A program made the position numbers and the translations under genes. DNA of 38,700 nucleotides from assembly GCA_963658395.1 (NCBI GenBank), contig CAVKPZ010000001.1:1-38700 (forward strand), in the 5' to 3' direction. Position 1 is the stretch's first letter, and each line of letters opens with the position of its first letter. Below, in pieces: positions 1,341-29,604 of the stretch. The DNA is from Lachnospiraceae bacterium (lineage in GTDB: Bacteria > Bacillota_I > Bacilli_A > RFN20 > CAG-826). The notes beneath the pieces are model-generated. The model was not told where the DNA came from and made no database searches. It saw only the letters and a program-made list of their open reading frames with translations.

Positions 1341-2954
1341 TTAAACGTTTTCTCCTTTTTCCTGCTTCAATAGCGTGGCGTAGCGAAGCATTTGCTTCCT
1401 TGATTGGACGCCTAGTTTATTAAGGATGTTGTGATTATGGTATTTGAGGGTGCCTTTTTGAATGTGGCACGCTTCCATGATCTCCTCCGCGGTTTTTCCT
1501 TCTAGATACAAGGAGAAAACTTGCTTTTCCGTTTTCGTCAGCGTCTTCAGCCCCATTTTGAACATCTCATAGTCATCGGGGGATATTTCGTTCTTGCGGG
1601 AATAGGCAAGCCGCTGGATGTCGGTCTTGTCTTTGCTTAGGAGATCCTCTTGCTCGTTGCATCTTTCTTGCAGCTTTCTCGTTTCCTCCTCGTGCAATCG
1701 GTCCTGCGCGTCAAGAAAGGCGAAAAGGTCATCGATCTCGGCATATTCTGGCTTTGCCTCGGCGCGTTGTTGCCTGCGGATGCCCTCGATGCTTTTTATT
1801 AAGGGCCGCAGGAAACGTTTGCTGAAGAAGAGGCAGACGCAGATGGTCGTTCCTAGCAAAACGGCCACGAGCAGGACGATCGAAACGATGCTTTTCACGA
1901 CTTCTCTATCGTATTCGCTTTTCGGATAAGCGACGACTAAGAGGTAATCTTCGGAGCAAATGCGGCTCAGCTTGGTCTTCGCCACAAAGGAGGAGCCTCC
2001 ATAAAGTGCTTCTAAGCCTCCGCCTAGATCGTTCATGCTGAATTCCCCCTGCGGAGGGAGGTAATACCCTCCATAAACGCCCGAGGAGAATCCGCGTTCG
2101 GTTTGAAGCGTATTGCCGTTTTTGGGGAGGAAGAGGCAGCTGAGGTGTTCTAACTTGGACGATTGGGCGAAATACTGCTTAAAGTAACTTCCCGATATCT
2201 CGAAGCCGCATAGGCCATACATTTCCCCTTTGCTTCCGATCAGGGGAACGATGAAATTCATCGTTCTTTCCGAAGTGCCATACAAATCGCCGACTTGCGA
2301 TAAAAACGGCGTTTTGTCCGTGGGCGCTTCTTCTTTCCGCTTGGCGTAGGTGTCGTAGCCAGAGAACGCTTCGGTGTCGAATTCCAAACGCCATTTCCGA
2401 TGGGGCATGATGTTGTTTTTTCTTCCAAGCTCGGATATTCCGCGATAAAGCAGCAACGTCTCGTCCGTTTCATCCAAGGAGGCCCGCTGGAAATACAGGC
2501 CCGTTTTGGATTTCTCCGCTTCCGCCACGCTTTCGTTTACCGTGGCGTCGAACACCACAAACGCTCCAGAGCAATGCGTCTTCAATAGCTCCGTCCCAAG
2601 TTTGTCGAATACCGCGCTTTGAAGAGAAGACACGCGTTCCTCATTGTTGCTGACCTCTTCGAAGGATATGCCTTCGCTAGATAAAAGCGCCTCGGTCTTA
2701 CCGACGATGCTTTCCGAGAGGGCGTTGCCCATTCGGGTTAGGTCTTCATAGTACTTGCTGATTTGACGGTCGTAGGCGCTTAATTGAAAAGACAAGGCGG
2801 TCTCCGTGCTTTGCCTAGCCGTTGGGAACCCGCCAAGCAGGAACACCCCGGCAGAAAGGAAGGCAAGCACGATTCCGGCCAAGGCGGACATGTACAAAAA
2901 CAGCCTCCGCCGCATCGGGGTCTTTTTGCTTTTGCCTTTGTCCCCTTGGCCCAT
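1341..2954 (-). CDS. Membrane-anchored one-component regulator: TM, extracytoplasmic sensor domain (Cache-like?), TM, coiled coil, C-terminal LuxR-type HTH
   Basis: 537 aa. There is an N-terminal TM (LFLYMSALAGIVLAFLSAGVFLLGG), then about 300 aa extracytoplasmic, then a second TM (IVSIVLLVAVLLGTTICVCLFF). The C-terminus reads LTKTEKQVFSLYLEGKTAEEIMEACHIQKGTLKYHNHNILNKLGV, a LuxR/GerE HTH. The start lies 4 nt after the stop of the upstream SBP gene. Confidence 0.75.
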   Translation of the reverse strand: MGQGDKGKSKKTPMRRRLFLYMSALAGIVLAFLSAGVFLLGGFPTARQSTETALSFQLSAYDRQISKYYEDLTRMGNALSESIVGKTEALLSSEGISFEEVSNNEERVSSLQSAVFDKLGTELLKTHCSGAFVVFDATVNESVAEAEKSKTGLYFQRASLDETDETLLLYRGISELGRKNNIMPHRKWRLEFDTEAFSGYDTYAKRKEEAPTDKTPFLSQVGDLYGTSERTMNFIVPLIGSKGEMYGLCGFEISGSYFKQYFAQSSKLEHLSCLFLPKNGNTLQTERGFSSGVYGGYYLPPQGEFSMNDLGGGLEALYGGSSFVAKTKLSRICSEDYLLVVAYPKSEYDREVVKSIVSIVLLVAVLLGTTICVCLFFSKRFLRPLIKSIEGIRRQQRAEAKPEYAEIDDLFAFLDAQDRLHEEETRKLQERCNEQEDLLSKDKTDIQRLAYSRKNEISPDDYEMFKMGLKTLTKTEKQVFSLYLEGKTAEEIMEACHIQKGTLKYHNHNILNKLGVQSRKQMLRYATLLKQEKGENV

Positions 2955-2957
2955 GGC

Positions 2958-4289
2958 TTATTCCCCTATGCTTTTGAACAATTCCATGAGCTCCGTTTCG
3001 ATCTGCGAGGAGGTTTCCCCTGATTCGTATTTGCTCGCAAGCTCTTTTTGGAGTTCCCTCACCCCATCATAAAAGCGATAGGTGTTTTGGTAATATCCGT
3101 CTATGGATGGCTCAGAAAGGAAGGAGCAGTTTTCTCTCGTCGCTTTTAAGGAAGCGTATGTGCTTTTAAGGTCTTCGGTTTTGAAGGCGTAATCATCCAT
3201 TTGCTCAAACGATCCGACCTTGACGGGCATATAGCCGGTCTGGGCCACGAAATCGAGGTTGCGCTTTGCTTGAGTGAACCATTTGGCGAAGACGGTCGAG
3301 GCTTCTTCTTTCTGCTCCGTTGTTTTATACGCGCATAGCCCGACGCCTGCTTGCGTGGCGTAGTGGATAAGCCCTTCCTCTTGAGGGAGAGGCAAGACTT
3401 TGAGGTCGGTGTCTTCGGAGGTGTTGTCGGGATAGGTGATTTTGTCGTTGTAATAAAGCACGGCCGCGGAGGAGCTGATTCCTGCTATGGTTTGCCCCGT
3501 CATCACCTGGGTGTTTGAATAGAGGTCTGAGACGACGATATGCCCCTTGGCGATGGACTGGGCGAATTTCTTATAAGAGGAGAGAACGATATCGTCGTCT
3601 TTATACCAACTGCCTTCATAGAAAGAGTTGGCCCCGTGGCTGATCGCGTTGAGCTCGACGCTTCGTAGGAGATAGTCCAAAGCGCAGAAAGGTTTTCCTC
3701 CCGAATACTCGTAATAGGCTTCCGCGGCGGAGAAAAAACCATCCCACGTCTTCAAGGAATCGTAGGTAATCCCTTTTTCGGAAGCGAAGCGATCGAAAGC
3801 CCCTCCCGCCAAAAACAAGAGGTGTGTTGATTTGGATATAGGCAAAACGGATAGGTTCTCGCCGACGGTTCCATCGCGAAGGAAGCTGGTCACGAATTCG
3901 TTTAGCTCATCGCCGGTGAACTGTTGGTTCCAATCTAGAAGATTCTCTTCGCCTAGCTCTTTGGCGTTGCTGGCGTGGCAGAAGAAGAGATCGGGCATAG
4001 CGGGGACGCCGGCTTTCCCTTTCTGGGCGTTTAAAAGCTTCTCTCCGATCTGGGAGGCGTTAGACATCAGCGTGACGTTGACGATGATGCCCTTCTCCGC
4101 GCCTATGGTGCGGTTGAACTCATCGACGTATTGATTCATCGGCGAATCGGCTTGCTCGCCATAAACGTGCCACATCGTCAGGGTGACGGGGTTCTGGGCA
4201 TCTAGAAGGGAAGAGTTGGAATTGCAGCTAGAAAGCGGTGCCAAAGAAAGCAATAGGGGCATTAATGCGATAAGGGTTTTCTTTTTCAT
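2958..4289 (-). CDS. Extracellular solute-binding lipoprotein (ABC family-1 sugar-type SBP), with no cognate permease or ATPase nearby
   Basis: 443 aa. Signal peptide plus lipobox: MKKKTLIALMPLLLSLAPLSSC. The length and composition are SBP-like (VTLTMWHVYGEQ..., GVGLCAYK). SD AGGAGG lies 10 nt upstream of the ATG. Confidence 0.75.
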   Translation of the reverse strand: MKKKTLIALMPLLLSLAPLSSCNSNSSLLDAQNPVTLTMWHVYGEQADSPMNQYVDEFNRTIGAEKGIIVNVTLMSNASQIGEKLLNAQKGKAGVPAMPDLFFCHASNAKELGEENLLDWNQQFTGDELNEFVTSFLRDGTVGENLSVLPISKSTHLLFLAGGAFDRFASEKGITYDSLKTWDGFFSAAEAYYEYSGGKPFCALDYLLRSVELNAISHGANSFYEGSWYKDDDIVLSSYKKFAQSIAKGHIVVSDLYSNTQVMTGQTIAGISSSAAVLYYNDKITYPDNTSEDTDLKVLPLPQEEGLIHYATQAGVGLCAYKTTEQKEEASTVFAKWFTQAKRNLDFVAQTGYMPVKVGSFEQMDDYAFKTEDLKSTYASLKATRENCSFLSEPSIDGYYQNTYRFYDGVRELQKELASKYESGETSSQIETELMELFKSIGE

Positions 4290-4458
4290 GGTGGCGTCGC
4301 CTCCTGGCTTGATGCGGGTTTTGAAATCTCTTAAATAAATTAACCGAAAAAAGAACGATTTCCCATACCTTTTTGGGGTTTGGGTAGGGGACGAGGCGAA
4401 AGAGATTCACATAATGGAAACATGCGGGTCATTCACCGCCCTTAAGTTTCTACCTTTT

Positions 4459-4482
4459 AGCAAAGCACATTGGTGCGTTGCT
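4459..4482. promoter_or_regulatory. Imperfect dyad AGCAAAGCA-n6-TGCGTTGCT in the divergent SBP/lipoprotein intergenic region (possible regulator box)
   Basis: Read directly: 9-bp arms with one mismatch. It lies in the 333-bp divergent promoter region between 4289 and 4623. Assigning it to the LuxR-type regulator is speculation. Confidence 0.25.
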
Positions 4483-4622
4483 TGAAGGCAAGGCTTGGGG
4501 GATTTTAAAAAAGGAGGAACGAAAAGGATGGAGACGCATTCGCGTCCGAACAAAAAGAATTCTCGAAAGCCGAAAAGGCACACAGCAACTTTGCTTCAAC
4601 CAAACACCTAGGAGTACAACAC

Positions 4623-6824
4623 ATGAAAAGAAAAACCATTCCGATTGCCCTTGCTTCCGCGTTGATGCTTGCTCTCCCTTTGTCCCTTCTTTCTTCTTGC
4701 GGTGGGGAGAAGCATCAATACGCGAGCACCTGGTCTAGCGATTCCACGGACCATTGGCACGCCTGCACTATCGCAGATCACGCCGACGTCGCCGATAAAG
4801 GCGCTCACGATTTTGACAATGGGAAAATCACCAAAGAAGCCACGGAGGATGCGGAAGGCGTCAAAACCTACACCTGCAGCACCTGCAATTACCAAAAGTA
4901 CGAATCGATCGCCAAATTGCCCCATACGCATACCTTCGATACCGCTGTCTGGGCAAGCGACGAGGAGAATCATTGGCATCCCTCCACCTGCGGGCACGCC
5001 GACGAGAAGGACGCCCTGGCCGCCCACGTTTGGGACGAGGGCGAAGTAACGAGCGAGGCCACCGAGGAAGAGGAAGGCGTGATTACCTATACTTGCTCCG
5101 TCTGCGGCGAGACGAAGGAGGAGACTATTTCCGTGATTCCTCATACGCACACTTTCTCCGATGCCTGGAGCAAGGACGAGACCGGGCACTGGCACGCGGC
5201 GACCTGCGAGCACACCGACCAAAAGAGCGGTTTCGCGGAGCATAGCGGCACGTGGACGACGAAAGAGGAAGCAACCTATTTGGCAAATAGAGTCGACCAA
5301 AGGGATTGCGAGGTCTGCGGGTATCATGAAGAGAAAGAGATCCCGGACACCATTCTTCCCGCCCAAGACAGGGAACTCAGCGTCGCGGAAATCGCGGATG
5401 TCTCTTTTGACGGGTTGGAACATCCTATTTCGGATAGCCAAATCACCCGTACCAACGATGAGGGTGGATTGACCATTGAGTATCGGGAAGAGGGTGAGGA
5501 GGAATATTCCACGGAGGTCCCCGTTGAAGTGGGCGACTACGAATATAGGGTGACTCTTAAAGGAACGAGCCAATGGAAAGAGAAAGTCGTCACAGGCGGG
5601 TTCTCAATCAACCCTTTGACGGTCGTGCTGACCGATACGTCCTTTGAGGATCCCATGATCAGCAGCGGCTACATCGTCCTTTCCAACATCTATACGACCG
5701 AAGATGGCAAGAATATTTCCGACGCTACAAACGGCTGGACCGATTCCGTCAGCCTCCTCGCTCCTTCGATTTATGGGGAGGTTGGGAGAAACACCGTCCC
5801 TTCCTCAAAGCTCTATCTTGATGATGACAACTTCATTCTTGACCGCGGCTCCATCGAAAACGTTGAAGTCATCCGCTACGACACAAGGGATTTCATCGCC
5901 GGTGTAACGGATTCATTTTACGTCACGGGGAGAGGCCCCGCTGTTACCGTTGAGATCGAAAAAGGGACCGTTGCCTCCGGGGACAAGCTTTACGTTTGCG
6001 AGCTTGGAAAAGAAGTGACTGTCTCAAGCATTTCGATTTCCAATGTGAACAAAACGAAGGCAACCGTTGGTGATGCCAATGTCGCTCTTTTGCTCAGCGG
6101 CGTCACTAAAGGAGAAATCACCAACGGCATGCTATTAGCTAAGACCGGCACGGTGAAGGCTCATCGCAGCGCTATTGCGACAATATCGCTCTATAGCTCT
6201 GCCACCTACGCTCTCCTCGACAAGGACACCAGGCCGGCATTTAGTTTCTCCGCGACCTCCATCTCGCTCAGCGGAAGGATCGCTCTTCCTTCGGGCGTTG
6301 AGCAGATCGGTATCGGAGAAACCGTCGAAAACGTCGTCGTCGATTTCTCTTCCGTCATAGGAAACTGGGCAGGAAGGACCTTCTACCTCAAAAACGGGAC
6401 CAACGTCATAGGCGCAGGGACGATCACGGAAGTCCACGATCACGATTTCGGCGACTCCGGGGTGTGCTCCTGCGGAGTCAGCAACGTGACCTCAGGCACA
6501 TGGTCCGAATCGGTTCTCACCTGCTTTGACTATTTCTATCTTGGCGAAGAGAGAGGGTATACCTGCAACTTGTCCCGTCCGATAAAAGCAAGTCCTATGA
6601 AATACACCTTCTCACTTTCTGATTCTCATGGGGATTCTTTCGACGAAGGGTTTGAATTTAAGGTTTACTCCGCCGCGACGAATGAGGAAATCACCCTAGA
6701 CTCAGACAATTCCTTCACGAAAACCACCGTTGGCCAACTACCCATAAAGGTGGTCGTGACCAAAACCGGAGGCTCGCAATGGTTTGAGTATTGCTGCCTT
6801 ACGATCACAAGATCCGTCGCCTAA
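4623..6824 (+). CDS. Surface lipoprotein with three His/Cys-rich repeats, an MBG-like segment and an EF-Tu domain II/III-like beta-barrel module
   Basis: 733 aa. Lipobox MKRKTIPIALASALMLALPLSLLSSC. SD AGGAG lies 8 nt upstream. There are three repeats of about 60-70 aa of the form HTHTF-x3-W-x2-DE-x2-HWH-x2-TC-x-H-x-D ... EGV-x-TYTCS-x-C. Residues about 421-604 align by eye to EF-Tu domains II and III (see findings). Confidence 0.85.
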   Translation: MKRKTIPIALASALMLALPLSLLSSCGGEKHQYASTWSSDSTDHWHACTIADHADVADKGAHDFDNGKITKEATEDAEGVKTYTCSTCNYQKYESIAKLPHTHTFDTAVWASDEENHWHPSTCGHADEKDALAAHVWDEGEVTSEATEEEEGVITYTCSVCGETKEETISVIPHTHTFSDAWSKDETGHWHAATCEHTDQKSGFAEHSGTWTTKEEATYLANRVDQRDCEVCGYHEEKEIPDTILPAQDRELSVAEIADVSFDGLEHPISDSQITRTNDEGGLTIEYREEGEEEYSTEVPVEVGDYEYRVTLKGTSQWKEKVVTGGFSINPLTVVLTDTSFEDPMISSGYIVLSNIYTTEDGKNISDATNGWTDSVSLLAPSIYGEVGRNTVPSSKLYLDDDNFILDRGSIENVEVIRYDTRDFIAGVTDSFYVTGRGPAVTVEIEKGTVASGDKLYVCELGKEVTVSSISISNVNKTKATVGDANVALLLSGVTKGEITNGMLLAKTGTVKAHRSAIATISLYSSATYALLDKDTRPAFSFSATSISLSGRIALPSGVEQIGIGETVENVVVDFSSVIGNWAGRTFYLKNGTNVIGAGTITEVHDHDFGDSGVCSCGVSNVTSGTWSESVLTCFDYFYLGEERGYTCNLSRPIKASPMKYTFSLSDSHGDSFDEGFEFKVYSAATNEEITLDSDNSFTKTTVGQLPIKVVVTKTGGSQWFEYCCLTITRSVA

Positions 6825-7114: not shown

Positions 7115-7879
7115 TCAATCCTTATCTTCGTTCCTCTCGGATTCCTGCTTCTGCAGAGACTCCAGCTTCGCCCTGAGTTCTTCGATCTCCTTGTCTTTCG
7201 CATTGCTCGCCGACAAGGCGGCTTCTTCTTTCTTCTTTTTCTTCTCCTCGCTTAAGACATAGATGATCTTGGCGATTTCGTAGATGCAGATCGCGCTGCA
7301 AGGAAGGATGACCAAAACAAGGGTCCCCACCTTGCTAGAGATGAAGAAATACATTTTCCCCAAAGGCAAGGAGACGAAAGACACCTTTCCGATGACTTCG
7401 CCCGTCCGCCCATCGCTATAGAGGGTCTGGGTGTTCCCCTCCTCCACCGCATCGCCCTTCAGCTTGATCATGTAAGTCGTCCCATCGCTTAGCAAGGTGG
7501 GGTCCTCGATGATCCTATGGGTGATGGTCGCGTTGTTCAAAGAGGCGTAATTGAAGGTCAGGACATCGCCTTTTTTAAGCCCGGAATAAAATTCCTCTTC
7601 ATGGCCGTCTTTGATAAGGTCGACCTTGATAAGGGATTTTACGGGAATGGTCTTGATGGGGTATTCCTCTTGACTCTCCCCATCCATTGAGCCGGATAGG
7701 ACGACCAAAAACTGGCTGTCCCCTATTCTTCCTCCGGTGGCTTTGGAGGTGATGGAAAAAGCCGCGGTTACAGTCAAAAGACCCAACACGGTATAGAAGA
7801 TGGTGTTCCTAATGATCTTGCCGACCTTCTTGGGTTTCTTTTGCTTTTCTGTGTCGTCGTTGCTATTCATTGTAGACAA
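7115..7879 (-). CDS. sipW: Signal peptidase I, SipW (archaeal/ER-type S26B) with a C-terminal TM and charged tail
   Basis: VVLSGSMDGES (catalytic Ser) and TITHRIIED (His) match the B. subtilis SipW motifs. It is the last gene of an operon of SipW-type-signal proteins. The track start is TTG at 7879. An in-frame ATG at 7870 is equally likely, and neither has a clear SD. Confidence 0.8.
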   Translation of the reverse strand: MSTMNSNDDTEKQKKPKKVGKIIRNTIFYTVLGLLTVTAAFSITSKATGGRIGDSQFLVVLSGSMDGESQEEYPIKTIPVKSLIKVDLIKDGHEEEFYSGLKKGDVLTFNYASLNNATITHRIIEDPTLLSDGTTYMIKLKGDAVEEGNTQTLYSDGRTGEVIGKVSFVSLPLGKMYFFISSKVGTLVLVILPCSAICIYEIAKIIYVLSEEKKKKKEEAALSASNAKDKEIEELRAKLESLQKQESERNEDKD

Positions 7880-7884
7880 GGATA

Positions 7885-7910
7885 GCGCGGGAGCTTGGCG
7901 GCTCCCGCGC
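7885..7910 (-). promoter_or_regulatory. GC-rich stem-loop between the 477-aa TasA-like gene and sipW (possible attenuator or RNA-processing site)
   Basis: gcgcgggagc (7885-7894) pairs with gctcccgcgc (7901-7910): a 10-bp perfect stem with a 6-nt loop. No clear U-tract follows on the minus strand, so it is not a canonical full terminator. Confidence 0.45.
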
Positions 7911-7965
7911 TGAATTAACCGGATACGAACAGGAATTCACGTTCGTAGCCAAGAGAAATGACGCT

Positions 7966-9399
7966 TTACTTTATGGTGATTGTGTTGTTTACGCCTTGGT
8001 CGTTGATGTAATTTGACACTTTTTTGATGTAGTCGCCCATTGTCTCATCGTCTTCTTTCTTAATTTCGGTGTCATTGTGCTTAAATGTGCATCCATCAAA
8101 CTCGACCTCGATGTTCGTACCAATCTTAGTTCCGCGGGATTTCTTTTGAATGGTTAAGAAACCTTCGGTGGCACTCCCGTTTTCCTTAGCAGAAATAGTG
8201 CAATCTTTGAAAGTCAATTTGGAATTGTCGGTGTCATCGGTTAGGGCAATGGCGAAGAAGTTGTTTCCATTGCCACTCCAATAGTTTTCACCAATCAACT
8301 CGCAATTTTCGAACAGGCCAGTTGTATTGGGGGACCAGATGTTAACTCCACCGTAACCCTTTAACGTTGAATTGCGCACTATCAAGTTCAGGTTTTCGTT
8401 GTTGCTGGCGATATTGAGGGGGTAATGGGTTGTGCTTACGTTGCAGTTGTCCAACGTCAAAGTGAAGTTGGTTGTTCCCCAAACGTTGATAGTTCTCACA
8501 CTTTCGCTGCTATCGGCCGGAAGCGTGCTTGTAGCGGAACTAAGGTCAATTCCTACCAGGGTTAAGGAGCCGTTTTCGTGGGTGAATTTTCCATAAACAT
8601 CCGCATCATCGGAATCAGTAGGATCGGGTTCGTTGATGTTGAATACTCTCTTTTCGGTGGTGGTAATCTTTGTATCACCGTCTCCGTAGATGGTTAGATT
8701 CCTCGCGCTGACTCTTATGGGTTCGGAGAGTTCGATATCGCTGGTTGCCTTTACGCTGACGCTTTCGCTGCTTGAGGATAAAGCTTCAAGCAAATCCTCT
8801 TCGGAAGCGACTTCGGTGTCATAAACAACCGCGTTCCCTTGAACCGCTTCAACGCCGAGTTTGATGGTGGCTTGCTCGATCTCTTCGGTCGCGGTCGCGG
8901 GCAATTCGACGACAATCTCATAAGCCTCGATTTCGCCTTCGGCATCAAGCGCCGTCCAGTTCTTGACCATGGCGTCATCGCCGGTGACTTTCAAAGCGCC
9001 GGTGTTGTCCCCGGTGAAAGAATAGGTCTCGCGGTACTTGATCTTGACGTTGCTGTTGTTTTTCGGGGTGACGGTCAAAGTGACTTTGTCCCCAGGAAGC
9101 ATCTTGGTGATGCTGACGCTGTTGCCGTCTTCTGAGACTTCAGCCTTGATGTCGGCGTAATCGGCATTGTTGGTGGAATCGAAGATGGTGGCGTCGCCTG
9201 GGTTGATAAGGCTCGGGGAATAGACTTCCTTGACCTCGATCTTAGAAGTGACGCTGACTTTACCTGAGGCCACTTCGATTTGGCCGTTTGTTTTGCTCGT
9301 GAACAAAGCGTAGGTGGTTCCGACGGCGACCCCTCCAAAGGCAAGGGCCGCGGCTGCGGATAGGATGAGGGTTTTGCTAACTTGCTTTGAGGTTTTCAT
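7966..9399 (-). CDS. TasA/camelysin-like (SipW-dependent signal) protein fused to a C-terminal right-handed beta-helix domain
   Basis: 477 aa. The N-terminus LILSAAAALAFGGVAVGTTYALFTS matches the SipW-cognate signal (G-T-Y-A-x-F). It has a LPGDKVTLTVTPKNNSNVKIKYR beta-sandwich motif. The C-terminal ~270 aa show Asn/Thr/Gly-rich repeats (NLTIYGDGDTKI, LTLDNCNVS, LIVRNSTLKGYGGVNIW, LTFKDCTISA, VEFDGCTFKH) typical of pectate-lyase-fold beta-helices. Confidence 0.7.
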   Translation of the reverse strand: MKTSKQVSKTLILSAAAALAFGGVAVGTTYALFTSKTNGQIEVASGKVSVTSKIEVKEVYSPSLINPGDATIFDSTNNADYADIKAEVSEDGNSVSITKMLPGDKVTLTVTPKNNSNVKIKYRETYSFTGDNTGALKVTGDDAMVKNWTALDAEGEIEAYEIVVELPATATEEIEQATIKLGVEAVQGNAVVYDTEVASEEDLLEALSSSSESVSVKATSDIELSEPIRVSARNLTIYGDGDTKITTTEKRVFNINEPDPTDSDDADVYGKFTHENGSLTLVGIDLSSATSTLPADSSESVRTINVWGTTNFTLTLDNCNVSTTHYPLNIASNNENLNLIVRNSTLKGYGGVNIWSPNTTGLFENCELIGENYWSGNGNNFFAIALTDDTDNSKLTFKDCTISAKENGSATEGFLTIQKKSRGTKIGTNIEVEFDGCTFKHNDTEIKKEDDETMGDYIKKVSNYINDQGVNNTITIK

Positions 9400-9426
9400 A
9401 TTCTTTTTCTTTCCTTTCTTAGTTTG

Positions 9427-9987
9427 TTAGTCTTCGATGGCATTCGCCTGAATCGCCTCGACGTTGATCAGGACTTCGTAGCTTTTGTTCTGATATGCGT
9501 TTCCGGCGGTTTTGGGGAGAAGGATCTCGATTTGCTGCTCGGGTATCTCCCCTCCCACATCGACTCTTGCCCAGGAGGAGGCGCCTTCTAATTGAAGGGG
9601 GCAATCCTCTTCTCCGGGGATGGAGATGGCGACGCGGTATTTGATGGCGATGTTGCTTTTGTTATCAAGGGAGAGGGAGAACTTGACGCTGTCCCCTGGG
9701 CATATTCGGTCTAGGGATAACCCTTTGACCGTCTTGCCTTCGATCACGAAGTCTTTGAAGGAGGCTTCCCCTCCGTTTTCAAAGATGCTCCCTTCTTGCT
9801 TGGCCCCCATGGAATAGACTTCCAAGGTGGTTTCTTTGAAGCTTACGTCAAGATCGACTTTGGCCATCTTGACGCTGCTTGGCGCCTCTTTGGTGGCGGA
9901 GAAGTAGGCATAGGTGCCTGCGATGACTCCTGAAGAGGCGATCGCGGCGGCCAGCACAGAGGCGATTAGGATTTTCTTCTTTTTCAT
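9427..9987 (-). CDS. TasA/camelysin-like secreted protein (candidate fibre subunit)
   Basis: 186 aa. Signal MKKKKILIASVLAAAIASSGVIAGTYAYFSA. It has an ICPGDSVKFSLSLDNKSNIAIKYR motif and ends in INVEAIQANA, as in TasA-family proteins. SD AAGGAG lies 6 nt upstream. Confidence 0.75.
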   Translation of the reverse strand: MKKKKILIASVLAAAIASSGVIAGTYAYFSATKEAPSSVKMAKVDLDVSFKETTLEVYSMGAKQEGSIFENGGEASFKDFVIEGKTVKGLSLDRICPGDSVKFSLSLDNKSNIAIKYRVAISIPGEEDCPLQLEGASSWARVDVGGEIPEQQIEILLPKTAGNAYQNKSYEVLINVEAIQANAIED

Positions 9988-10005
9988 ATTGGGCTCCTTC
10001 GCTGA

Positions 10006-10632
10006 TTAGGACCTGGCCTCATTGAGCTGAGTCAAGGTCAGCTTGATGGCAAAGGATAGCTCTTGGTCTTGGGCTTCGTTGGAAATCTGCTCGGCGTCGA
10101 AGCTGAGCTTAAGGGCGAACTCGTCGCTCGCTCCTTTCTCCAGGTCGCTTAGATCGACCGGGGAGAGGTCCTTCAAGGTGAATGAACCTTTTTCGTCGGT
10201 TCCTTCGGTTACGGATACGCTGACGTACTCGAGCCATGAGACACTGTCGCTAGTTACGTTATCGGCCGTAACCTGGACGTTAAGCAATTCCAGCGTCGTC
10301 TTGAAGGCGGTGCCGCCGGTGTTCTCCAATTTGAACGTGGATTTGACCTCGCTCCCAGGAACGATGTTTTCTAGCTCGAACGCTTCCGACCCGTCTTGGG
10401 TGAGGTCGAGAAGAGAATCATCGACCTTGTCTTCAAGATAGCCCTGCGCGTTAGGCACCTTGGATCTCAGCTCGGTGCGGCTGAAGGAGAAATTGAGGTT
10501 GCCGATTTTGACGTGGCTGACCACATCAAGGTTCCGGTTGAACAAAGCGAACGTTCCCCCAATCGCTCCGCCTAGAGCCAAAGCGGCGACTCCGGATGCG
10601 ATCAGCAAGCCTTTGATGCGCTTACTTTCCAT
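10006..10632 (-). CDS. TasA/camelysin-like secreted protein (paralog)
   Basis: 208 aa. Signal LLIASGVAALALGGAIGGTFALFNR. It has an IVPGSEVKSTFKLENTGGTAFK motif. SD AGGAGG lies 7 nt upstream. Confidence 0.7.
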   Translation of the reverse strand: MESKRIKGLLIASGVAALALGGAIGGTFALFNRNLDVVSHVKIGNLNFSFSRTELRSKVPNAQGYLEDKVDDSLLDLTQDGSEAFELENIVPGSEVKSTFKLENTGGTAFKTTLELLNVQVTADNVTSDSVSWLEYVSVSVTEGTDEKGSFTLKDLSPVDLSDLEKGASDEFALKLSFDAEQISNEAQDQELSFAIKLTLTQLNEARS

Positions 10633-13016: not shown

Positions 13017-13030
13017 AGGTGGTGAACAAT

Positions 13031-14482
13031 ATGCTTTTATCCGAATTGGGAATCAAAGAAGAATTCGAAACCGTGACTAATGATTTCAAGAGATTTCTCA
13101 ATGACGGCGAGAGATCTTTGGAGTGGCTGAAAACCATTGATGCTTTTGCCAACACCAAAGGAGGAACTCTTTATGTCGGGGTTTCCGATGAGGACTATCG
13201 GCCAATTGGCTTAGATAAAAAAACGGTGGATTCGCAGGTGCAGCTTTTCTTCCGCCTTGTCAAAGAACACCTCCGGCCCGAACCCGTGGTTCAGGTTCGT
13301 TATCTAAAGGTTAGAGACGAAGCGTTCGTAATCGAGTTTTCAATTGCCTCCTCTTTATTGAAACCCGTCGTCTGCTCTTATGGTGGGAACGGTTCCATAT
13401 TTATTCGTTTAGAAGGGAAAACGCGTTTAGCCACCACCGAGGAAATCCAACGCATGGCTCTAGATACGGCCTACGTTGAATACGACAAGGTGTATTCGGA
13501 CGTGGAGTTTGATCCCGCGTGTTTCCAAACGCTTTATTCCCTATACAAGGAGAACAGCGGCAAAGAGCTTACTGAAAAGGCTCTATTCTCCATCGGTTTC
13601 TTTAATGAGCAGCGCGTCTGCCGAAGGGCCGCATTGCTTTTCTCCGATAATTTCCAGGGGGATGAAACAGCGCTCTCTATCACTGATTTCATGGGTCTAG
13701 GCAAAGGAGGAAACCGCTTTGTCAGCGAGCCTTATTTCCGCGGAAATATTCTTGAAGGGATCAAGCGCGTTCAACGCTTCGCTAGAGCCCACTCCAAGGA
13801 GATTTACGTCAAACTCGACGCAAACGGCCACACGACTTCCTCCTTCCCCGAGCGTGCCGTGACCGAGGCGATTGTCAACGCCTATGCGCATAGGAACTAT
13901 TTGCTCCCACATGGCCAAATTGAGGTAAATCTTTATCTCGACCGTTTGGAGATCGTTTCCCCGGGTTCCGTCGTTGGGCGCTCGGGATTTGAAAAAAGAA
14001 AAGATTTGGCGGCTTTGATTCCCATTCGGAGAAATCCTTTTATCTGCGAAGTCCTCTCTTTGCTTCTATTGATGGAGAGAAAAGGCTCTGGGTTCGACAA
14101 AATCGAAAAGGAATATGATTGCTTTTCTTCCGCTTTCAAGCCTTTTGCCTCTAGCGATGAGGCCTCCTTTTCCATTTCCTTGCCCAACCTTTCCTATCCT
14201 TTTGGAGTGGCTGATGGCGATAATGCGAACCTGGATTTGTTTTTCCCTGAACTCGAACGAGAGAGAGAAAGCACGAAGAGGGTTCTTTCCTATTGCTTCT
14301 TCAAAAGAAGATCTCTCAGCGAGATCGCCTCTTTCTTGGGTGTCGCCGTCTCCTCTTATCTGAGAAATAACGTGCTTCATGAGCTGATTGATAGGGGCCT
14401 CCTCCTTCTTGAGAGGGAGGGGAATAAGGATTATTACCTCACCGATAAGCGGCTGGTCAGTATCCGCGGGGAAGAACAATAG
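13031..14482 (+). CDS. AlbA_2 (Schlafen-like) plus HATPase_c_4-type putative DNA-binding/transcriptional regulator ('RecG-like' annotation family)
   Basis: The track start is GTG at 13019. The ATG at 13031 is preceded by AAAGGTGG at 8 nt. The N-terminus ...FETVTNDFKRFLNDGERSLEWLKTIDAFANTKGGTLYVGVSD... fits AlbA_2. AVTEAIVNAYAHRNY...LEIVSPGS fits the HATPase_c_4-like part. The C-terminus looks like a wHTH (LSEIASFLGVAVSSYLRNNVLHELIDRGLL). Confidence 0.7.
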   Translation: MLLSELGIKEEFETVTNDFKRFLNDGERSLEWLKTIDAFANTKGGTLYVGVSDEDYRPIGLDKKTVDSQVQLFFRLVKEHLRPEPVVQVRYLKVRDEAFVIEFSIASSLLKPVVCSYGGNGSIFIRLEGKTRLATTEEIQRMALDTAYVEYDKVYSDVEFDPACFQTLYSLYKENSGKELTEKALFSIGFFNEQRVCRRAALLFSDNFQGDETALSITDFMGLGKGGNRFVSEPYFRGNILEGIKRVQRFARAHSKEIYVKLDANGHTTSSFPERAVTEAIVNAYAHRNYLLPHGQIEVNLYLDRLEIVSPGSVVGRSGFEKRKDLAALIPIRRNPFICEVLSLLLLMERKGSGFDKIEKEYDCFSSAFKPFASSDEASFSISLPNLSYPFGVADGDNANLDLFFPELERERESTKRVLSYCFFKRRSLSEIASFLGVAVSSYLRNNVLHELIDRGLLLLEREGNKDYYLTDKRLVSIRGEEQ

Positions 14483-24566: not shown

Positions 24567-25751
24567 TTAATCCAAAATCTCTTGTTCCAGCTTCACGTCA
24601 TTATCGAGCATGAATTGGATTGTTTCTTTGAATTCGATGAAGGCTTCCTCATTTAACATCTTGTTTAGTCTCTCCTTGTCGTTCGGGGTTAGCTTCTTTA
24701 GATTCCCAAAGTTGCTTTTTAGCTCTTCAATGCCCATTTTATATGGCTTTATGGGGATGCCTGTTTTCGCTCTTAGATTTACTAGAATCCAAAATCCTCC
24801 CGCATCGATGTCCCCAAAATGGAGATATTCTGCCTTTGGAAAAGCCTCATATAGTTTCACGAGAAGCTTTTGCTTCGTGTGGTTGTGGAAACCTGCTAAA
24901 TAGATGACCAACGCGTCCTTTTCTTTGAGCTCATAGAAGGAAGTGAGATTCTCAACCGTGATTACTTTCGTCAAATCGCCTGGCTCAAACTCGATTTTCT
25001 TGATCATCTCATCTGACAAAGAGAACTCAAAGCCAAGCTCATCCAAATCAATCAACGACTTGTTGATTCTGAACCTCAGCTTGTTCTTGAGGAGGACGTA
25101 TGAGGAGTTTTTGCCTAGGTTAAAGGACTCAAGAACCTCTTCATCCGTTAAATCTTCTAAGGAGGCGTACTTCCTAAGGATCTTGATGACTTTCCCTTCA
25201 ATCAATTCGAAAGTCTTGGAGTCCCCTAGATAATGGGTTGAGAAATCCCTTATCTTCGTCTCTTTATCCAAAAGGAAAAGGCTCTGCAGGGTTTTTAGAA
25301 TCAAATCCAACTGTTTTGCATCGTTAAAGAAAGATTTTGGATAGGTGTATTTCTCTTCGATGCTTTGCCGGATATCGGAGATAAAGTCAGCGACGAAGTT
25401 ATTGAAGCGATATTTGGATAAGACTTCCAAAACCTTGGCGTTCTCTTCCGCGGGGCTCGGGCGATGCAAATATTTATAGACCTCGTTCACGGAGTCGATA
25501 TTCAAGGTCAAAGATTTAAAGACATCGCCCTCGAATTCCGCTTGGATGAAACCAAACTTCTCTAATCTTTCAATAGAGGCGTTGTTCTTATCCGTGTATT
25601 TGTAGGAATCGTAACCGTTGTAAGAAGAAAGGACATCGTCCTTCGTGGTCAAGGTTATCTTCCTATTCACCTGGGTCCCGCCCCTAGAAAGTTTCGAGTT
25701 CTCGTATTTATCGAGCAGCTTGTTGAGAAGCTTTGTCTCGAAGTCACTCAT
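24567..25751 (-). CDS. jetD: Wadjet JetD (MksG-like; DUF3322 plus Toprim-like DUF2220 nuclease subunit)
   Basis: 394 aa. The C-terminal Toprim-like region has VITVENLTSF (Glu) and LHFGDIDAGGFWIL (DxD). It is the last gene of the four-gene operon and overlaps jetC by 8 nt. Confidence 0.8.
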   Translation of the reverse strand: MSDFETKLLNKLLDKYENSKLSRGGTQVNRKITLTTKDDVLSSYNGYDSYKYTDKNNASIERLEKFGFIQAEFEGDVFKSLTLNIDSVNEVYKYLHRPSPAEENAKVLEVLSKYRFNNFVADFISDIRQSIEEKYTYPKSFFNDAKQLDLILKTLQSLFLLDKETKIRDFSTHYLGDSKTFELIEGKVIKILRKYASLEDLTDEEVLESFNLGKNSSYVLLKNKLRFRINKSLIDLDELGFEFSLSDEMIKKIEFEPGDLTKVITVENLTSFYELKEKDALVIYLAGFHNHTKQKLLVKLYEAFPKAEYLHFGDIDAGGFWILVNLRAKTGIPIKPYKMGIEELKSNFGNLKKLTPNDKERLNKMLNEEAFIEFKETIQFMLDNDVKLEQEILD

Positions 25752-28700
25752 CTTCTTTGACCATCCTTTGGATTATGGGGATGTTGTTGTATTTGACGAT
25801 GCCGATGATGGTCTCGACGTAGGGACTGATCACGGAGAAGCGGTTGGAGGGAACGACGATGATAATCTGGATGTTGAGGTTTTTGTAGAACTCCATCAAA
25901 GACTTGATACGGCCTTCGTCCATGTTATTGAAGGCCTCGTCGAACACGACTTGGCATGTGCTTTCCACTTTGTTGCGGTCCTTGTTCATGAGCTCGTCGA
26001 AGCAAGAGGCGATGACGATGTAGAAAGGGGTCTGGGTTTCGCCACCGCTCTTCTCTCTGCTGATCTTCGAGAAATAGGTGACGTCCCCCCTCTTGTTCGT
26101 GATCTTGATGTCGTAATTCATGTAATTGCGGTAATCAAGGTAACGTTCGAGTTCCTTCTCGGCCTCGCTGCTATCGACCTCCATCGAGATCTTATCGAAA
26201 AGGTCTTTGATGAAAGAGACATCTTTTTCGTCCAAAACCTCGGTGAAAAGGTCATCCGCTTCAAGGAGCTTCCCCGAATTGATGATGCGGTAGTACTCGC
26301 AGAACTCATTGTCCTTCGTCGGGCCATAGCTGAATTCATAAACTTCCTCATCGTTTCCGAAGGGGTGCTTGGCAAGGCTCTTGTTGATGTTAGCGAGCTT
26401 CTTCTTCGCTTCCTGGATCTTCTCGTTCAGCTTGGAGATGAAGTCCTGCCTAAAGGAGTTCTCCGCTCTCTTGTAAGCATCGTTGGCTTCTCTTTCGTAT
26501 TGGACGATGTCCCGGTTCTTCAGCTCATAGTATTCATTGATGTAGTCTTTGATGTTATCAATGATGGCCACCAAAGAGGGCTTGTAGTTCGATGCGTAAG
26601 CGCTCATCTTCGCTTCTAAGTCTGGCTTGGATACGACGTTGGAGCGGAAGGCGTTCTCGTAGTCGGCGTTTATCTTCTCGACGTTCAGATGCTTGAGGTG
26701 ATTCAAATACTTGGGCAGGAGCTGCTGGTATTGGTCTTCGTCCACCCTCTTCTTTTCGCTTTGGAAGCGGGATTCCGAATCTTCAATGGCCTTCTCAAGG
26801 TTCTCGATTGAGCCAATGACCCTTCCTTTAGATTCCGAAAGCTGGTCTCTCTTGTCTTCCTTCTGACGTTTCAATAGGCCGAACTCGGATAGGCGTTTCT
26901 TGGCTTTCTCGATTTTCGAGGAGATTTCCAAAAGCCCTTTCTGCTTTTCATCGTCCTTGATTTCGTCTTTTAATTCCTGGATTGATTTTTGCTTCAGCTC
27001 GACCTTCGCCCAGTAGTTCTCCGTCTCCAAAAGGGCGTCGATCTTGCTCATTCTGGCATAGGACAATTTGCCATTGATCTCCGTTTGCTCGCCTTCGATG
27101 GAGGCGATCTCCGCTTTAAGAGCTTGGATCTCCTCTTGGAGCAAAGCGATCCTGACTTTGATGGATTCCCTTCCGATGTAGGGTTTTTTGTAGAGCTCAG
27201 GATCACAGGCTTTTAAGACGTGGCCGTCATAAGAAAACGCTTCTGGGGTGATGGCGGACTCATAATGTTCAAGCTCGCTTGAGGACTCCACGCAACGGGT
27301 ATTTGAAAGCAGGTAAGAGGCGTATTTCCTCGCGTAATCGTTTTTGACGTCGAGCTTGCTAAACAAGGTGTCTCCGTCTTTGGTCTTTCCTCCTTCAGGC
27401 AAAGATTTGACGTTCACCAGGCCAGAAAGATAGACCCTCTGTTTGTTTTTAGCTTGGTCTAAAGCGTTTCGGGCAACCTCGTAATATTTGGGATTGATGA
27501 TCAGATCGAATCGTTTTGAGGCGAGCTTCCCTTCTAGGGCATTCGCCCATTTCCGGTCGTTGATCTCTAGAAATTCGCAGAAAGGCGCGATGAGGGGCTC
27601 TCTGTCTTTCGGGAACGATTTGGAAACGGCCTCTTTCACGATCTTTAAGAGGTTATTGACGTCCTCGGGGTAGTTGTTGAGGCCTTTTTGGAGAAGGCAG
27701 AGCTCGCTTTCCTTATCTTTCAGGCTGCTCTTGTCTTCTTCAATTCGGAGGCTGTTCTTCGCTTTTTCGCTGTTCAGGCTTTCTTGCAATGAGGACAAAT
27801 CCCCTTGGTATTTCTTCAAATTGATGGAAAGAGAAGCGAAATCCTTGCTTTTGAAGTTCTCGGCGAGGGAGGATTTGATACCCAAGGCTTTGATGATTTT
27901 GAGCTCGCCGGCGATTTGGTTTTCGAATGTCTGGAGCTTGGCGCTTAACTCTAGTAGTTCCTTATGATAGGCATCTAGTTTAGTTTTCTTTTGCTGCAAG
28001 ACCTTGTAGGCCTCGTCGTTCTCCAAAAGGTTGATTTCGACGTGAGCGGAGTTGATGTCCTTATCTAGCTGAGCGATTTGCTCGCTTAAGGTTTTGCTTT
28101 CGTCGTCTAGTTTCGCGAGCTCCATCCGCTTGGCGTCCAAGTCGGCTTTGTAACTCTCGGCTTCCGCTTCGATTTTTAGGACGCCTAAATATTGGATGGA
28201 GGACAGATTCTCGACGTATTTCTCCGCTTTCGGGATGAAAAGAGCAAGGGCGTCCATCTTTTCTTGCTCTTTTAAGACGAGTCGGTGGATTTCTTGGTAG
28301 GAACGGATCTCTTCCCTCATGCTGTCCAGGCTGATGTTGTTTTGGCTCAGCAAAAAGCTGTTCACGAAGGTAGAGACTTCGGAGATCGGCTTAAAGGAAA
28401 TCGCGCTGGAAAGCAGGTCGAAATAACGGTTGTAGTCCTCTAACTTGAAGAGGTCTCTTCCGATTGCCCTGCGGATTTCCCTCTTGCTCCCGTTCAGCGG
28501 CTGGAAGTCATATCTCATCGCCTGGGCGTGTGCTTTGAATTCCTTAAAGGTGAGGGCTTTCTTGTTTTTCAGATAGTCCCCTTCTTCGATCTCATGGTCA
28601 TTGATCAAGAAGAAATTGGGTTTTGGCTCGGAGGAGAAAAGCTCAATCACGACCCCGAGAACCAAGGATTTCCCGCTCTTTTTGTCGCCACACTCCAAGG

Positions 28701-28977
28701 CGATATAGCTCACGATGTCGTTTTCTGGACGGAGAAAAGTGTTGTTCTCGCTTCCGATTTTGCCTCTAACGTAGGTCTCGATCGTCCTTTGCCCGCCTTC
28801 GCTCGCGGCTTTGTTGAAGTTCCTTTTGTCCCCACCAGACAAGACGAAATAGATCGCGTCCATCAAGGTCGATTTGCCACAGGCGTTCTCCCCTGTGATC
28901 AAGGTGTTGCCCTCGATGGCGATCGTGCTATTGGTGAAGATGTGCCAGTTGATGAGCTTAATCTTCTTCAGTTTCAT
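25744..28977 (-). CDS. jetC: Wadjet JetC (SMC/MukB-like ABC ATPase)
   Basis: 1077 aa. The N-terminal head is MKLKKIKLINWHIFTN...ITGENACGKSTLMDAIYFVL (Walker A). A coiled-coil of about 700 aa follows. The C-terminal head has SGGETQTPFYIVIAS (signature) and VVFDEAFNNMDEGR (Walker B). Confidence 0.85.
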   Translation of the reverse strand: MKLKKIKLINWHIFTNSTIAIEGNTLITGENACGKSTLMDAIYFVLSGGDKRNFNKAASEGGQRTIETYVRGKIGSENNTFLRPENDIVSYIALECGDKKSGKSLVLGVVIELFSSEPKPNFFLINDHEIEEGDYLKNKKALTFKEFKAHAQAMRYDFQPLNGSKREIRRAIGRDLFKLEDYNRYFDLLSSAISFKPISEVSTFVNSFLLSQNNISLDSMREEIRSYQEIHRLVLKEQEKMDALALFIPKAEKYVENLSSIQYLGVLKIEAEAESYKADLDAKRMELAKLDDESKTLSEQIAQLDKDINSAHVEINLLENDEAYKVLQQKKTKLDAYHKELLELSAKLQTFENQIAGELKIIKALGIKSSLAENFKSKDFASLSINLKKYQGDLSSLQESLNSEKAKNSLRIEEDKSSLKDKESELCLLQKGLNNYPEDVNNLLKIVKEAVSKSFPKDREPLIAPFCEFLEINDRKWANALEGKLASKRFDLIINPKYYEVARNALDQAKNKQRVYLSGLVNVKSLPEGGKTKDGDTLFSKLDVKNDYARKYASYLLSNTRCVESSSELEHYESAITPEAFSYDGHVLKACDPELYKKPYIGRESIKVRIALLQEEIQALKAEIASIEGEQTEINGKLSYARMSKIDALLETENYWAKVELKQKSIQELKDEIKDDEKQKGLLEISSKIEKAKKRLSEFGLLKRQKEDKRDQLSESKGRVIGSIENLEKAIEDSESRFQSEKKRVDEDQYQQLLPKYLNHLKHLNVEKINADYENAFRSNVVSKPDLEAKMSAYASNYKPSLVAIIDNIKDYINEYYELKNRDIVQYEREANDAYKRAENSFRQDFISKLNEKIQEAKKKLANINKSLAKHPFGNDEEVYEFSYGPTKDNEFCEYYRIINSGKLLEADDLFTEVLDEKDVSFIKDLFDKISMEVDSSEAEKELERYLDYRNYMNYDIKITNKRGDVTYFSKISREKSGGETQTPFYIVIASCFDELMNKDRNKVESTCQVVFDEAFNNMDEGRIKSLMEFYKNLNIQIIIVVPSNRFSVISPYVETIIGIVKYNNIPIIQRMVKEDE

Positions 28978-29602: not shown

Positions 29603-29604
29603 GT

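Follow-up and report, generated by a model that had tools for sequence, protein, structure and literature searches.

A predicted gut-bacterial lipoprotein carrying the paired beta-barrels of EF-Tu without its GTPase domain

The lipoprotein gene and its EF-Tu module

We analyzed a 38,700-nucleotide stretch of DNA (positions 1 to 38,700 of contig CAVKPZ010000001.1, assembly GCA_963658395.1, Lachnospiraceae bacterium), referred to here as the window, with a focus on one gene at 4623..6824 that encodes a predicted lipoprotein of 733 residues. Residues 419-606 of this protein are homologous to domains II and III of the translation factor EF-Tu and stand there without the G domain. The N-terminus (MKRKTIPIALASALMLALPLSLLSSC) carries an L-S-S-C lipobox at Cys26, and an AGGAG Shine-Dalgarno sequence lies 10 nt 5' of the ATG. 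The gene and the regions of its product are laid out as follows.

4623..6824, plus strand: lipoprotein open reading frame (ORF), intact frame, 733 residues
4623..4700, plus strand (residues 1-26): signal peptide and L-S-S-C lipobox with predicted lipidated Cys26, read from sequence; the n-region/h-region/lipobox pattern recurs in nearly all module-bearing relatives
4713..5342, plus strand (residues 31-240): three His/Cys-rich repeats of ~70 residues each, a presumed Zn-stabilized stalk, from an alignment of close relatives
5343..5876, plus strand (residues 241-418): 'mid' region, all-beta and probably two sandwich domains, from the AlphaFold2 model
5877..6158, plus strand (residues 419-512): EF-Tu domain II-like beta-barrel, aligning with Thermus aquaticus EF-Tu 220-311
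6159..6440, plus strand (residues 513-606): EF-Tu domain III-like beta-barrel, aligning with T. aquaticus EF-Tu 312-403, the natural C-terminus
6435..6824 to the stop codon, plus strand (residues 605-733): HDHxF..C.CG half-motif (6435-6482) and a beta-sandwich domain, the variable distal end of the family

An earlier note on this DNA, made by eye from the letters, had likened residues ~421-604 (5883..6434) to EF-Tu domains II-III on the strength of four motif pairs, and the likeness was upheld by three independent sequence comparisons. In the NCBIfam full-length EF-Tu models, residues 418-605 cover model positions 207-395 of 396, a span that opens with domain II and runs through to the C-terminus (PRK00049, E = 4.3e-21; TIGR00485, E = 1e-20), and the models for SelB (E = 1.8e-8) and EF-1alpha (E = 1e-4) scored 40-55 bits below bacterial EF-Tu on the same module. 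A phmmer search of residues 421-604 against all PDB sequences was headed by 5w75 (E = 1.2e-19), T. aquaticus 1eft (4e-18) and E. coli 1efc (1.3e-17), gave exclusively EF-Tu matches down to E = 5e-9, and aligned the four motif pairs in the same register. Further strength came from a profile based solely on 33 family modules, which matched 56 genuine EF-Tu sequences with 154-177 bits (E = 1e-47 to 1e-54). The Firmicutes-type EF-Tu proteins scored 166-177 bits, Thermus 162 and E. coli 154, a weak preference for Firmicutes-type EF-Tu. At the level of sequence comparison, these scores show that the barrel pair descends from a bacterial tuf gene.

The check with single-domain profiles that the earlier note had proposed gave a divided outcome. 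On the window protein, Pfam GTP_EFTU_D2 (PF03144) reached 23.5 bits (E = 7.5e-5), below its gathering score of 30.3, and GTP_EFTU_D3 (PF03143, gathering threshold 27 bits) reported no match; the D3 part does align with the full-length EF-Tu models and with PDB sequences. Relatives pass both thresholds, as seen for D2 in proteins P0014 (40.6 bits), P0008 (39.0) and P0016 (38.6) and for D3 in P0016 (53.5), P0008 (50.2) and P0089 (35.4). The absence of a GTPase domain, also stated earlier, stands: PF00009 (GTP_EFTU) found no match in the window protein even at E ≤ 10, the EF-Tu models begin to align only at position 207, and the 178 residues before the module are predicted by AlphaFold2 to be all-beta rather than a G domain. 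With 73.9 bits against a curated cut-off of 522.4 for TIGR00485, the protein is not an EF-Tu equivalog. Its module is ~30% identical at most to any EF-Tu, and the mean identity between family modules and EF-Tu is 27% (range 14-38%).

The fold was compared through an AlphaFold2 model of residues 241-733 with a mean predicted local distance difference test score (pLDDT) of 93.3. All 50 best Foldseek matches in the PDB were EF-Tu (E ~3e-16, probability 1.0), the best of them being 7vmc, an EF-Tu/CdiA/CdiI complex. The full-length sequence models and the fold both match EF-Tu, and the outcome that the earlier note had named as refuting the likeness, profiles without significant matches together with an unrelated beta-sandwich, did not arise. 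The superpositions had a root-mean-square deviation (rmsd) of 1.6-2.6 A, mostly below 2.0 A and around 1.8 A, at 24-30% identity over ~190 columns that span both barrels, so that both barrels and their mutual orientation have been kept. As modeled, the domain II-like and domain III-like barrels each superpose on the EF-Tu folds and are packed as in EF-Tu.

Window module and EF-Tu thus share homologous, contiguous barrels with the same C-terminal end, the same fold and inter-domain geometry, and the core motifs DxF, GRG (in the window protein), RPxF, LPxGVE, GxxFxxxxG and GxG(x)V. The window module differs from EF-Tu in being without a G domain, placed behind a lipoprotein export signal, embedded in a multidomain protein of 733 residues, reduced to 7 of 24 functional sites (see below) and much faster in its evolution. 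The view that the barrel half of EF-Tu was captured without domain I, behind a Sec/lipoprotein signal, is supported by the homology, the fold and the conserved lipobox.

The N-terminus (MKRK...LLSSC) matches the lipobox consensus [LVI][ASTVI][GAS]C within ~35 residues, with a positive n-region and a hydrophobic h-region, and the window protein is accordingly predicted from its sequence to be a Sec-exported, lipid-anchored lipoprotein. With its lipobox, the protein is expected at the external side of the cytoplasmic membrane. Where the earlier note had spoken of an extracytoplasmic surface module, the extracytoplasmic part is borne out by the Cys26 lipobox and the conserved signal, and the surface part is what we infer.

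The stalk is built on the pattern HxHxF..W..D...HWH..C.H....H......G.....C..CG over ~70 residues, in which the His and Cys positions are invariant (alignment A2) and are presumed to be putative Zn ligands. The repeat gave no significant match to any Pfam or NCBIfam model. As a side observation, over 1000 proteins, some of them from Treponema and Lachnospiraceae, have the same repeat as an N-terminal stalk.

The mid region was modeled as strands only, with a pLDDT of 93-97 (74 in the first ten residues). The C-terminal domain (model pLDDT 85) found its best fold matches in the PliG lysozyme inhibitor (4dzg, 4dy5 and 4dy3; E = 4e-5 to 1e-4), at a TM-score of 0.53-0.65, rmsd ~4 A and 8-11% identity, a generic beta-sandwich resemblance that holds at the fold level only. 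Weaker matches were obtained to the C-CPE claudin-binding, ColG collagen-binding and GOLD domains (TM-score 0.4-0.6, E 2e-3 to 1e-2). The model would thus give the C-terminal domain a binding-type beta-sandwich fold, and with a likeness of this general kind it was not assigned to PliG or C-CPE.

Divergence, family and other exported barrels

The extent to which the module has departed from EF-Tu was assessed at 24 functional sites, which were placed on the window module by the phmmer/PDB alignment and scored for retention over the 33 family modules. The list holds the aminoacyl-tRNA, 5'-phosphate and T-stem contacts of the T. aquaticus ternary complex, together with E. coli positions implicated in GE2270A binding or resistance and the Thr382 phosphorylation site. 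The window protein keeps seven of the 24 (D227, F229, R234, T239, N285, L289 and G391). Across the family, retention per site ranges from 3 to 70%, with E226 at 3%, R234 at 12% and I231 at 27%, each of which is at 100% in true EF-Tu. In the sampled true EF-Tu proteins, retention is 82-100% at 22 sites, and the two exceptions (H273 and K376) are Thermus-specific. Judged by this loss of most aminoacyl-tRNA contact residues, the module no longer does what EF-Tu does.

Divergence is also seen in the mean pairwise identity, which is 35% within the family vs 71% among the sampled true EF-Tu proteins. The ratio of nonsynonymous to synonymous substitution rates (dN/dS), taken by region from the least saturated pair (loci L005 and L006), was 0.09 in the stalk, 0.13 in the mid region, 0.24 in the domain II barrel, 0.27 in the domain III barrel and 0.25 in the C-terminal domain. 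The stalk is thus the most constrained part of the protein, and the barrels belong to its faster-evolving distal part. A dN/dS of ~0.25 nevertheless amounts to purifying selection on the barrels, which argues that the module is functional.

The survey of relatives that the earlier note had asked for revealed that the EF-Tu-module lipoprotein is not singular. Homologues of the full protein at E ≤ 1e-3 numbered 1373 among the 8000 candidates scored, and 85 of the best 120 share the EF-Tu module, so that the window protein belongs to a family with at least 85 representatives among those 120. The genomes of the relatives were found with the closer alignment A2, and a scan of genome contigs by the single module matched no relative. 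The module carriers share a layout of lipobox (almost always), His/Cys repeat stalk (2 to at least 6 repeats), Ig-like mid region, EF-Tu barrels and variable C-terminus, over total lengths of 580-1180 residues. The mid region precedes the EF-Tu module in most relatives, the C-terminal domain is swapped in other members for ~430 residues without a Pfam match, and in P0008, P0016 and P0105 the module is located between repeat units. Other homologues share the stalk alone and carry FGE-sulfatase, transglutaminase, endonuclease I, leucine-rich repeat or Flg_new heads; with the same repeats standing before such different heads, the repeats look like a general display stalk. Every member of the family is named just 'hypothetical protein', and our literature search, in agreement with what the earlier note had supposed, found no paper on the His/Cys-stalk EF-Tu-barrel architecture or on other exported GTPase-less EF-Tu barrels.

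In an unrooted neighbor-joining tree of 120 modules, the family with both mid region and module forms one clade with a bootstrap of 95/100, which falls to 65/100 once four members with the module directly between repeats are included. This indicates a single capture in the family ancestor and some shuffling thereafter.

The module-bearing genomes are labeled Clostridia, Clostridiales, Eubacteriales, 'Faecalibacterium sp. CAG:1138' and Candidatus Borkfalkiaceae, with a distant branch in Bacilli. The source is accordingly an uncultured gut bacterium that is probably a Clostridia-type Firmicute. For this assignment, the mutually contradictory labels of the five closest genomes (syntenic proteins 53-65% identical) were set aside in favor of the consistent labels of more distant members. 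Apart from this, the NCBI names of the CAV... 'cleanbin' metagenome-assembled genomes (MAGs; loci L002-L006, L013-L015 and L018) include Parasutterella, Paludibacteraceae, Bacteroidaceae, Holdemanella, Akkermansia and Phascolarctobacterium, labels that are mutually incompatible for contigs sharing 53-95% identical syntenic proteins with the window and that look unreliable.

Exported EF-Tu barrels were also met outside this family. A phmmer search of 1.84 billion representative proteins, with the module as query, yielded 855 matches at E ≤ 1e-3, 138 of them at E ≤ 1e-10, and the best 150 were sorted by their N-terminal features with heuristics, the counts being approximate. Some 20 of these 150 are of the window type. 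About 34 combine a zinc ribbon and/or an N/Q-rich region with one transmembrane segment and a C-terminal D2-D3 pair (P0153, P0136 and P0139), and in about 18 the D2-D3 pair comes after a cleavable signal peptide or a lipobox, a class in which some proteins are just 210 residues long (P0168 and P0208). Seven are EF-Tu paralogues with degenerate G1 motifs, and the remainder comprises probable tuf fragments, chimeric gene calls and unclassified matches; proteins that have unrelated N-termini and are otherwise 65-90% identical to EF-Tu were discounted as likely fragments or chimeric calls.

What these other GTPase-less exported D2-D3 proteins share with the window protein is the barrel pair behind an export or membrane-anchor signal. 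Unlike the window family, they have different N-termini, no His/Cys repeats and no mid region, and their modules are closer to EF-Tu: they are 38-69% identical to true EF-Tu, clear the Pfam thresholds for D2 and D3 with ease and retain the majority of the pocket residues. P0153 shows 68-69% identity with the genuine 394-residue EF-Tu of Firmicutes/Bacilli MAGs. The position of these classes beyond the window-family clade makes separate captures probable, and exported EF-Tu barrels would therefore appear to have arisen more than once.

Several observations on these proteins deserve mention in their own right. P0131 consists of two D2-D3 modules in tandem, and P0150 and P0185 are further members of the separate exported classes. 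Such genes (loci L083-L087) sit on chromosomal contigs of up to 299 kb, and their products are unnamed or 'hypothetical', with P0185 called 'elongation factor Tu' by one source. P0125 (L082:6001-8448) and P0127 are exported proteins in which two D2-D3 pairs are joined with two ribosomal L7/L12 C-terminal domains. A lipobox and a PASTA domain are further features of P0125, whose gene lies 15 bp downstream of a gene for a caspase (Peptidase_C14)-nSTAND-WD40 protein of 1822 residues. The EF-Tu-like proteins with a MAKEKF... start and a degenerate G1/P-loop are P0130, P0148, P0159, P0171, P0215, P0201 and P0226, a group that clusters in the module tree and in which P0201 (2034 residues) and P0226 (2376 residues) have very long C-terminal extensions.

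Neighboring genes and candidate regulation

Around the lipoprotein gene, the window contains the following genes and elements.

1341..2954, minus strand: membrane-anchored LuxR/GerE-type regulator of 537 residues (Pfam GerE, E = 5.8e-13), a conserved neighbor
2958..4289, minus strand: solute-binding lipoprotein, SBP_bac_8 (Pfam E = 2.5e-16), the divergent neighbor
4345..4392, no strand assigned: candidate operator/promoter block, recognized by conservation, with nested imperfect inverted repeats AACCGAAAAAAG/CTTTTTGGGGTT and CCCATACC/GGGTAGGG
7115..7879, minus strand: membrane protein of 254 residues that may be a SipW-type signal peptidase, no Pfam match (TasA/camelysin-like cluster)
7966..9399, minus strand: protein of 477 residues with a TasA-type N-terminal signal (TasA/camelysin-like cluster)
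9427..9987 and 10006..10632, minus strand: Peptidase_M73-like proteins (TasA/camelysin-like cluster)

The gene for the solute-binding protein (SBP) adjoins the lipoprotein gene in loci L002-L006, L008, L011, L021 and L023 despite their differing other flanks, and the pair of SBP and LuxR-type regulator comprises the only neighbors kept across loci in which the lipoprotein is 35-65% identical. The regulator has hydrophobic segments at ~residues 17-41 and 355-377, a ~310-residue extracytoplasmic region between them and a C-terminal helix-turn-helix. We propose that these two proteins detect an external solute and regulate the lipoprotein gene.

Within the 333-bp intergenic region, the ~48-bp block at 4345-4392 is nearly invariant in six loci, and the flanking intergenic DNA is poorly conserved. 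A search of Rfam with 4250-4700 at E ≤ 1 returned no leader RNA match. The block is followed by CATAAT at 4410-4415, and a conserved AAAGGAGGA occurs farther along the intergenic region (4510-4610). In L002-L004 it is succeeded by a mini-ORF encoding MRPP-stop, and in the window by an ORF of 27 codons whose end falls within the lipoprotein gene's Shine-Dalgarno sequence.

In distant relatives, the module gene sits beside the SBP/regulator pair and between genes for InlB-B-repeat (Flg_new_2) proteins of 1100-1300 residues and DUF6273 proteins of 720-800 residues, a locus that forms a cluster of surface-type proteins.

Other genes of the window were recorded as side observations. The TasA/camelysin-like cluster at 7115-10632 (minus strand) is partly kept in L002. 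A complete Wadjet anti-plasmid operon, recognized by Pfam, occupies 24567-30987 (minus strand) in the order JetA-JetB(DUF4194/MksE)-JetC(SMC-like)-JetD. Genes of the mobile-element or defense-island type lie at 128-1081, 13019-14482, 20582-24472 and 31719-33005 and encode Bro-N, Schlafen AlbA_2 with HATPase_c_4, ORF6N, AAA_14/DUF4143 and HTH_3 with DUF3990, as well as a 428-residue protein with an ADP-ribosyltransferase exoenzyme domain.

Possible roles of the exported barrels

On balance, and with restrained confidence, we think it probable that the window gene encodes a stalked, lipid-anchored protein of a monoderm gut bacterium in which the EF-Tu barrels have been domesticated for a non-translational role, as part of a head that binds an external macromolecule. 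In such a protein, the His/Cys repeats would form a Zn-stabilized stalk that lifts the head from the membrane and, given its length, presumably carries it past the wall. Ig-like mid region, EF-Tu barrels and C-terminal beta-sandwich would together make up this head, which might bind a macromolecule derived from the host, the diet or another microbe, with the barrels serving as a rigid platform or as part of the binding surface rather than as a mimic of the tRNA pocket. Expression would probably be set from the shared divergent promoter region by the SBP and the membrane LuxR-type regulator.

The build of such a protein has known counterparts. It resembles the modular Gram-positive surface proteins (InlB B-repeat/Flg_new, Big_2) in its beads-on-a-string, all-beta construction and its variable distal domain, and differs from them in having an N-terminal lipid anchor instead of LPXTG or SLH, a stalk of His/Cys repeats and a bead taken from a translation factor. 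Modular repeat-stalk surface proteins are thus already known, and what is new here is one with a translation-factor-derived module.

Binding by the barrels is plausible by analogy with EF-Tu itself, the adhesin role that the earlier note had raised being speculative. Moonlighting surface EF-Tu binds fibronectin, plasminogen, mucin and other ligands (PMC6822514), and the fibronectin-binding regions of Mycoplasma pneumoniae EF-Tu, residues 192-292 and 314-394, correspond to domains II-III (PMC6822514). That protein has no signal peptide, and its non-classical export route is unknown and debated (PMC6822514). The two cases are alike in placing an EF-Tu-derived polypeptide outside the cytoplasmic membrane; they differ in that moonlighting EF-Tu is the complete housekeeping protein, whereas the window gene is a dedicated one that encodes the barrels only and supplies a classical lipoprotein signal.

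Several points weigh against our reading. Exposure of the window protein beyond the cell wall is an assumption. The conflicting labels of the closest genomes leave the monoderm status to the distant relatives and to the Firmicutes-type (TasA/camelysin) neighbors. The regulatory link is drawn from synteny alone, and a sigma-70 scan of the intergenic region found no sigma-70-like site. The best public sequencing runs contain just 5-7% of the sequence words of the lipoprotein gene. Finally, the columns of the module that are conserved family-wide are mostly glycine and hydrophobic core positions.

The last of these points is at the same time an argument for a different role, in which the barrels would be an inert structural spacer, a rigid and protease-resistant block that positions the variable C-terminal domain and has no ligand of its own. 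Consistent with such a role, EF-Tu's functional pocket residues have not been retained, the C-terminal part varies among subfamilies while mid region and barrels remain constant, and the placement of the module between repeats in P0008, P0016 and P0105 is that of another bead. We nonetheless regard a pure spacer as unlikely, if worth serious attention: simpler beta-sandwich spacers are already present in the same proteins, every member has an intact D2+D3 pair with fixed geometry, and the separate proteins of ~210 residues that consist of a signal peptide and D2-D3 (P0168 and P0208) would be left unexplained.

Domains II-III of EF-Tu are bound by GE2270A-type thiopeptides (domain II), by the phage T4 Gol peptide and by some CdiA-CT toxins, and this recalls a further, speculative role that the earlier note had also raised, that of an extracellular decoy or sink for agents that recognize these domains, be they antibiotics, bacteriocins or toxins, phage proteins, or host antibodies and receptors. 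The CdiA partner in the best fold match, 7vmc, fits such a role, as does the head's evolving ~3 times faster than the stalk, which would be expected in an arms race. The other exported classes are more EF-Tu-like (58-69% identity, with 60-90% of pocket sites kept), and the two proteins that join the module with exported L7/L12 C-terminal domains have the look of displayed translation-machinery mimics. The domain II pocket is also the one occupied by thiopeptide antibiotics. In the window family, however, this pocket has been remodeled: the window protein has lost E226, E271, H273 and R274, and residues equivalent to E. coli G257, G275 and R223 survive in only 12%, 24% and 12% of the family. 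The lack of conservation at the aminoacyl-tRNA residues, those of the domain II pocket included, argues against a decoy that mimics that pocket. Moreover, the known toxins and phage factors act on cytoplasmic EF-Tu, no toxin or immunity genes are conserved beside the module gene, and a viral fold library matched the barrels only to giant-virus translational GTPases and to no receptor-binding or tail protein. For the window family, a decoy role is therefore disfavored on the residues it retains, and we hold it to be doubtful overall.

A phage-derived or phage-targeted module was considered separately and is unsupported, the same library having returned only giant-virus GTPases for the barrels and, for the rest of the protein, low-confidence, high-rmsd matches to tail proteins.

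A far less probable role is that the module has retained nucleic-acid or aminoacyl-ester binding and captures extracellular tRNA, RNA or nucleotides. The window protein does keep D227, F229, T239, N285 and L289 of the aminoacyl/A76 pocket, and the domain III 'EGGxxTP' loop is kept in many family members. Set against this are the loss in the window protein of the T-stem contacts R330, H331, T332, Q341, T350, K376 and E390, of the 5'-phosphate contact R300 and of the A76 contacts E271 and R274, the absence of domain I, which provides half of the tRNA interface, and a module net charge of -2. An artifact, whether chance similarity, a pseudogene or an assembly chimera of a tuf fragment and a lipoprotein gene, deserves next to no credence: some of the matches 65-90% identical to EF-Tu with unrelated N-termini are probably fragments or chimeric gene calls, but for the window gene this is refuted by the E-values of 1e-19 to 1e-54, the intact frame, the purifying selection and the recurrence of the architecture on numerous independent contigs that come from differing samples and genomes. 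With only ~30% identity to any EF-Tu, the module is also too far diverged for a recent chimera.

Beyond the domesticated head that we favor for the window protein, a broader possibility can be put forward tentatively, as one that we would not expect to hold but find worth stating. Exported EF-Tu barrels might form a recurrent and unrecognized class of extracytoplasmic domain, captured repeatedly from tuf and endowed with an intrinsic extracellular activity or ligand that also underlies the surface moonlighting of EF-Tu. The captures would then comprise the Clostridia His/Cys-repeat lipoproteins, the Bacilli-type gut proteins with zinc ribbon and transmembrane segment, the minimal proteins of signal peptide and barrels, and the combinations with L7/L12 C-terminal domains. 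Should this be true, these genes would represent a dedicated, Sec-dependent and genetically tractable form of surface EF-Tu. If the separate exported classes share a ligand, they would make up a new extracellular domain family, and if they do not, they would stand as documented domain domestication.

A family that exports just the barrels by the lipoprotein route suggests that EF-Tu-derived domains have been selected for an extracytoplasmic role, and it illustrates clearly how a module at the core of translation was exapted into the envelope of gut bacteria that are abundant but uncultured. GTPase-free and non-essential, such barrels would provide clean constructs for asking what the EF-Tu barrels bind. 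For annotation, the GTPase-less P0185, which already bears the name of the full elongation factor, serves as a warning.

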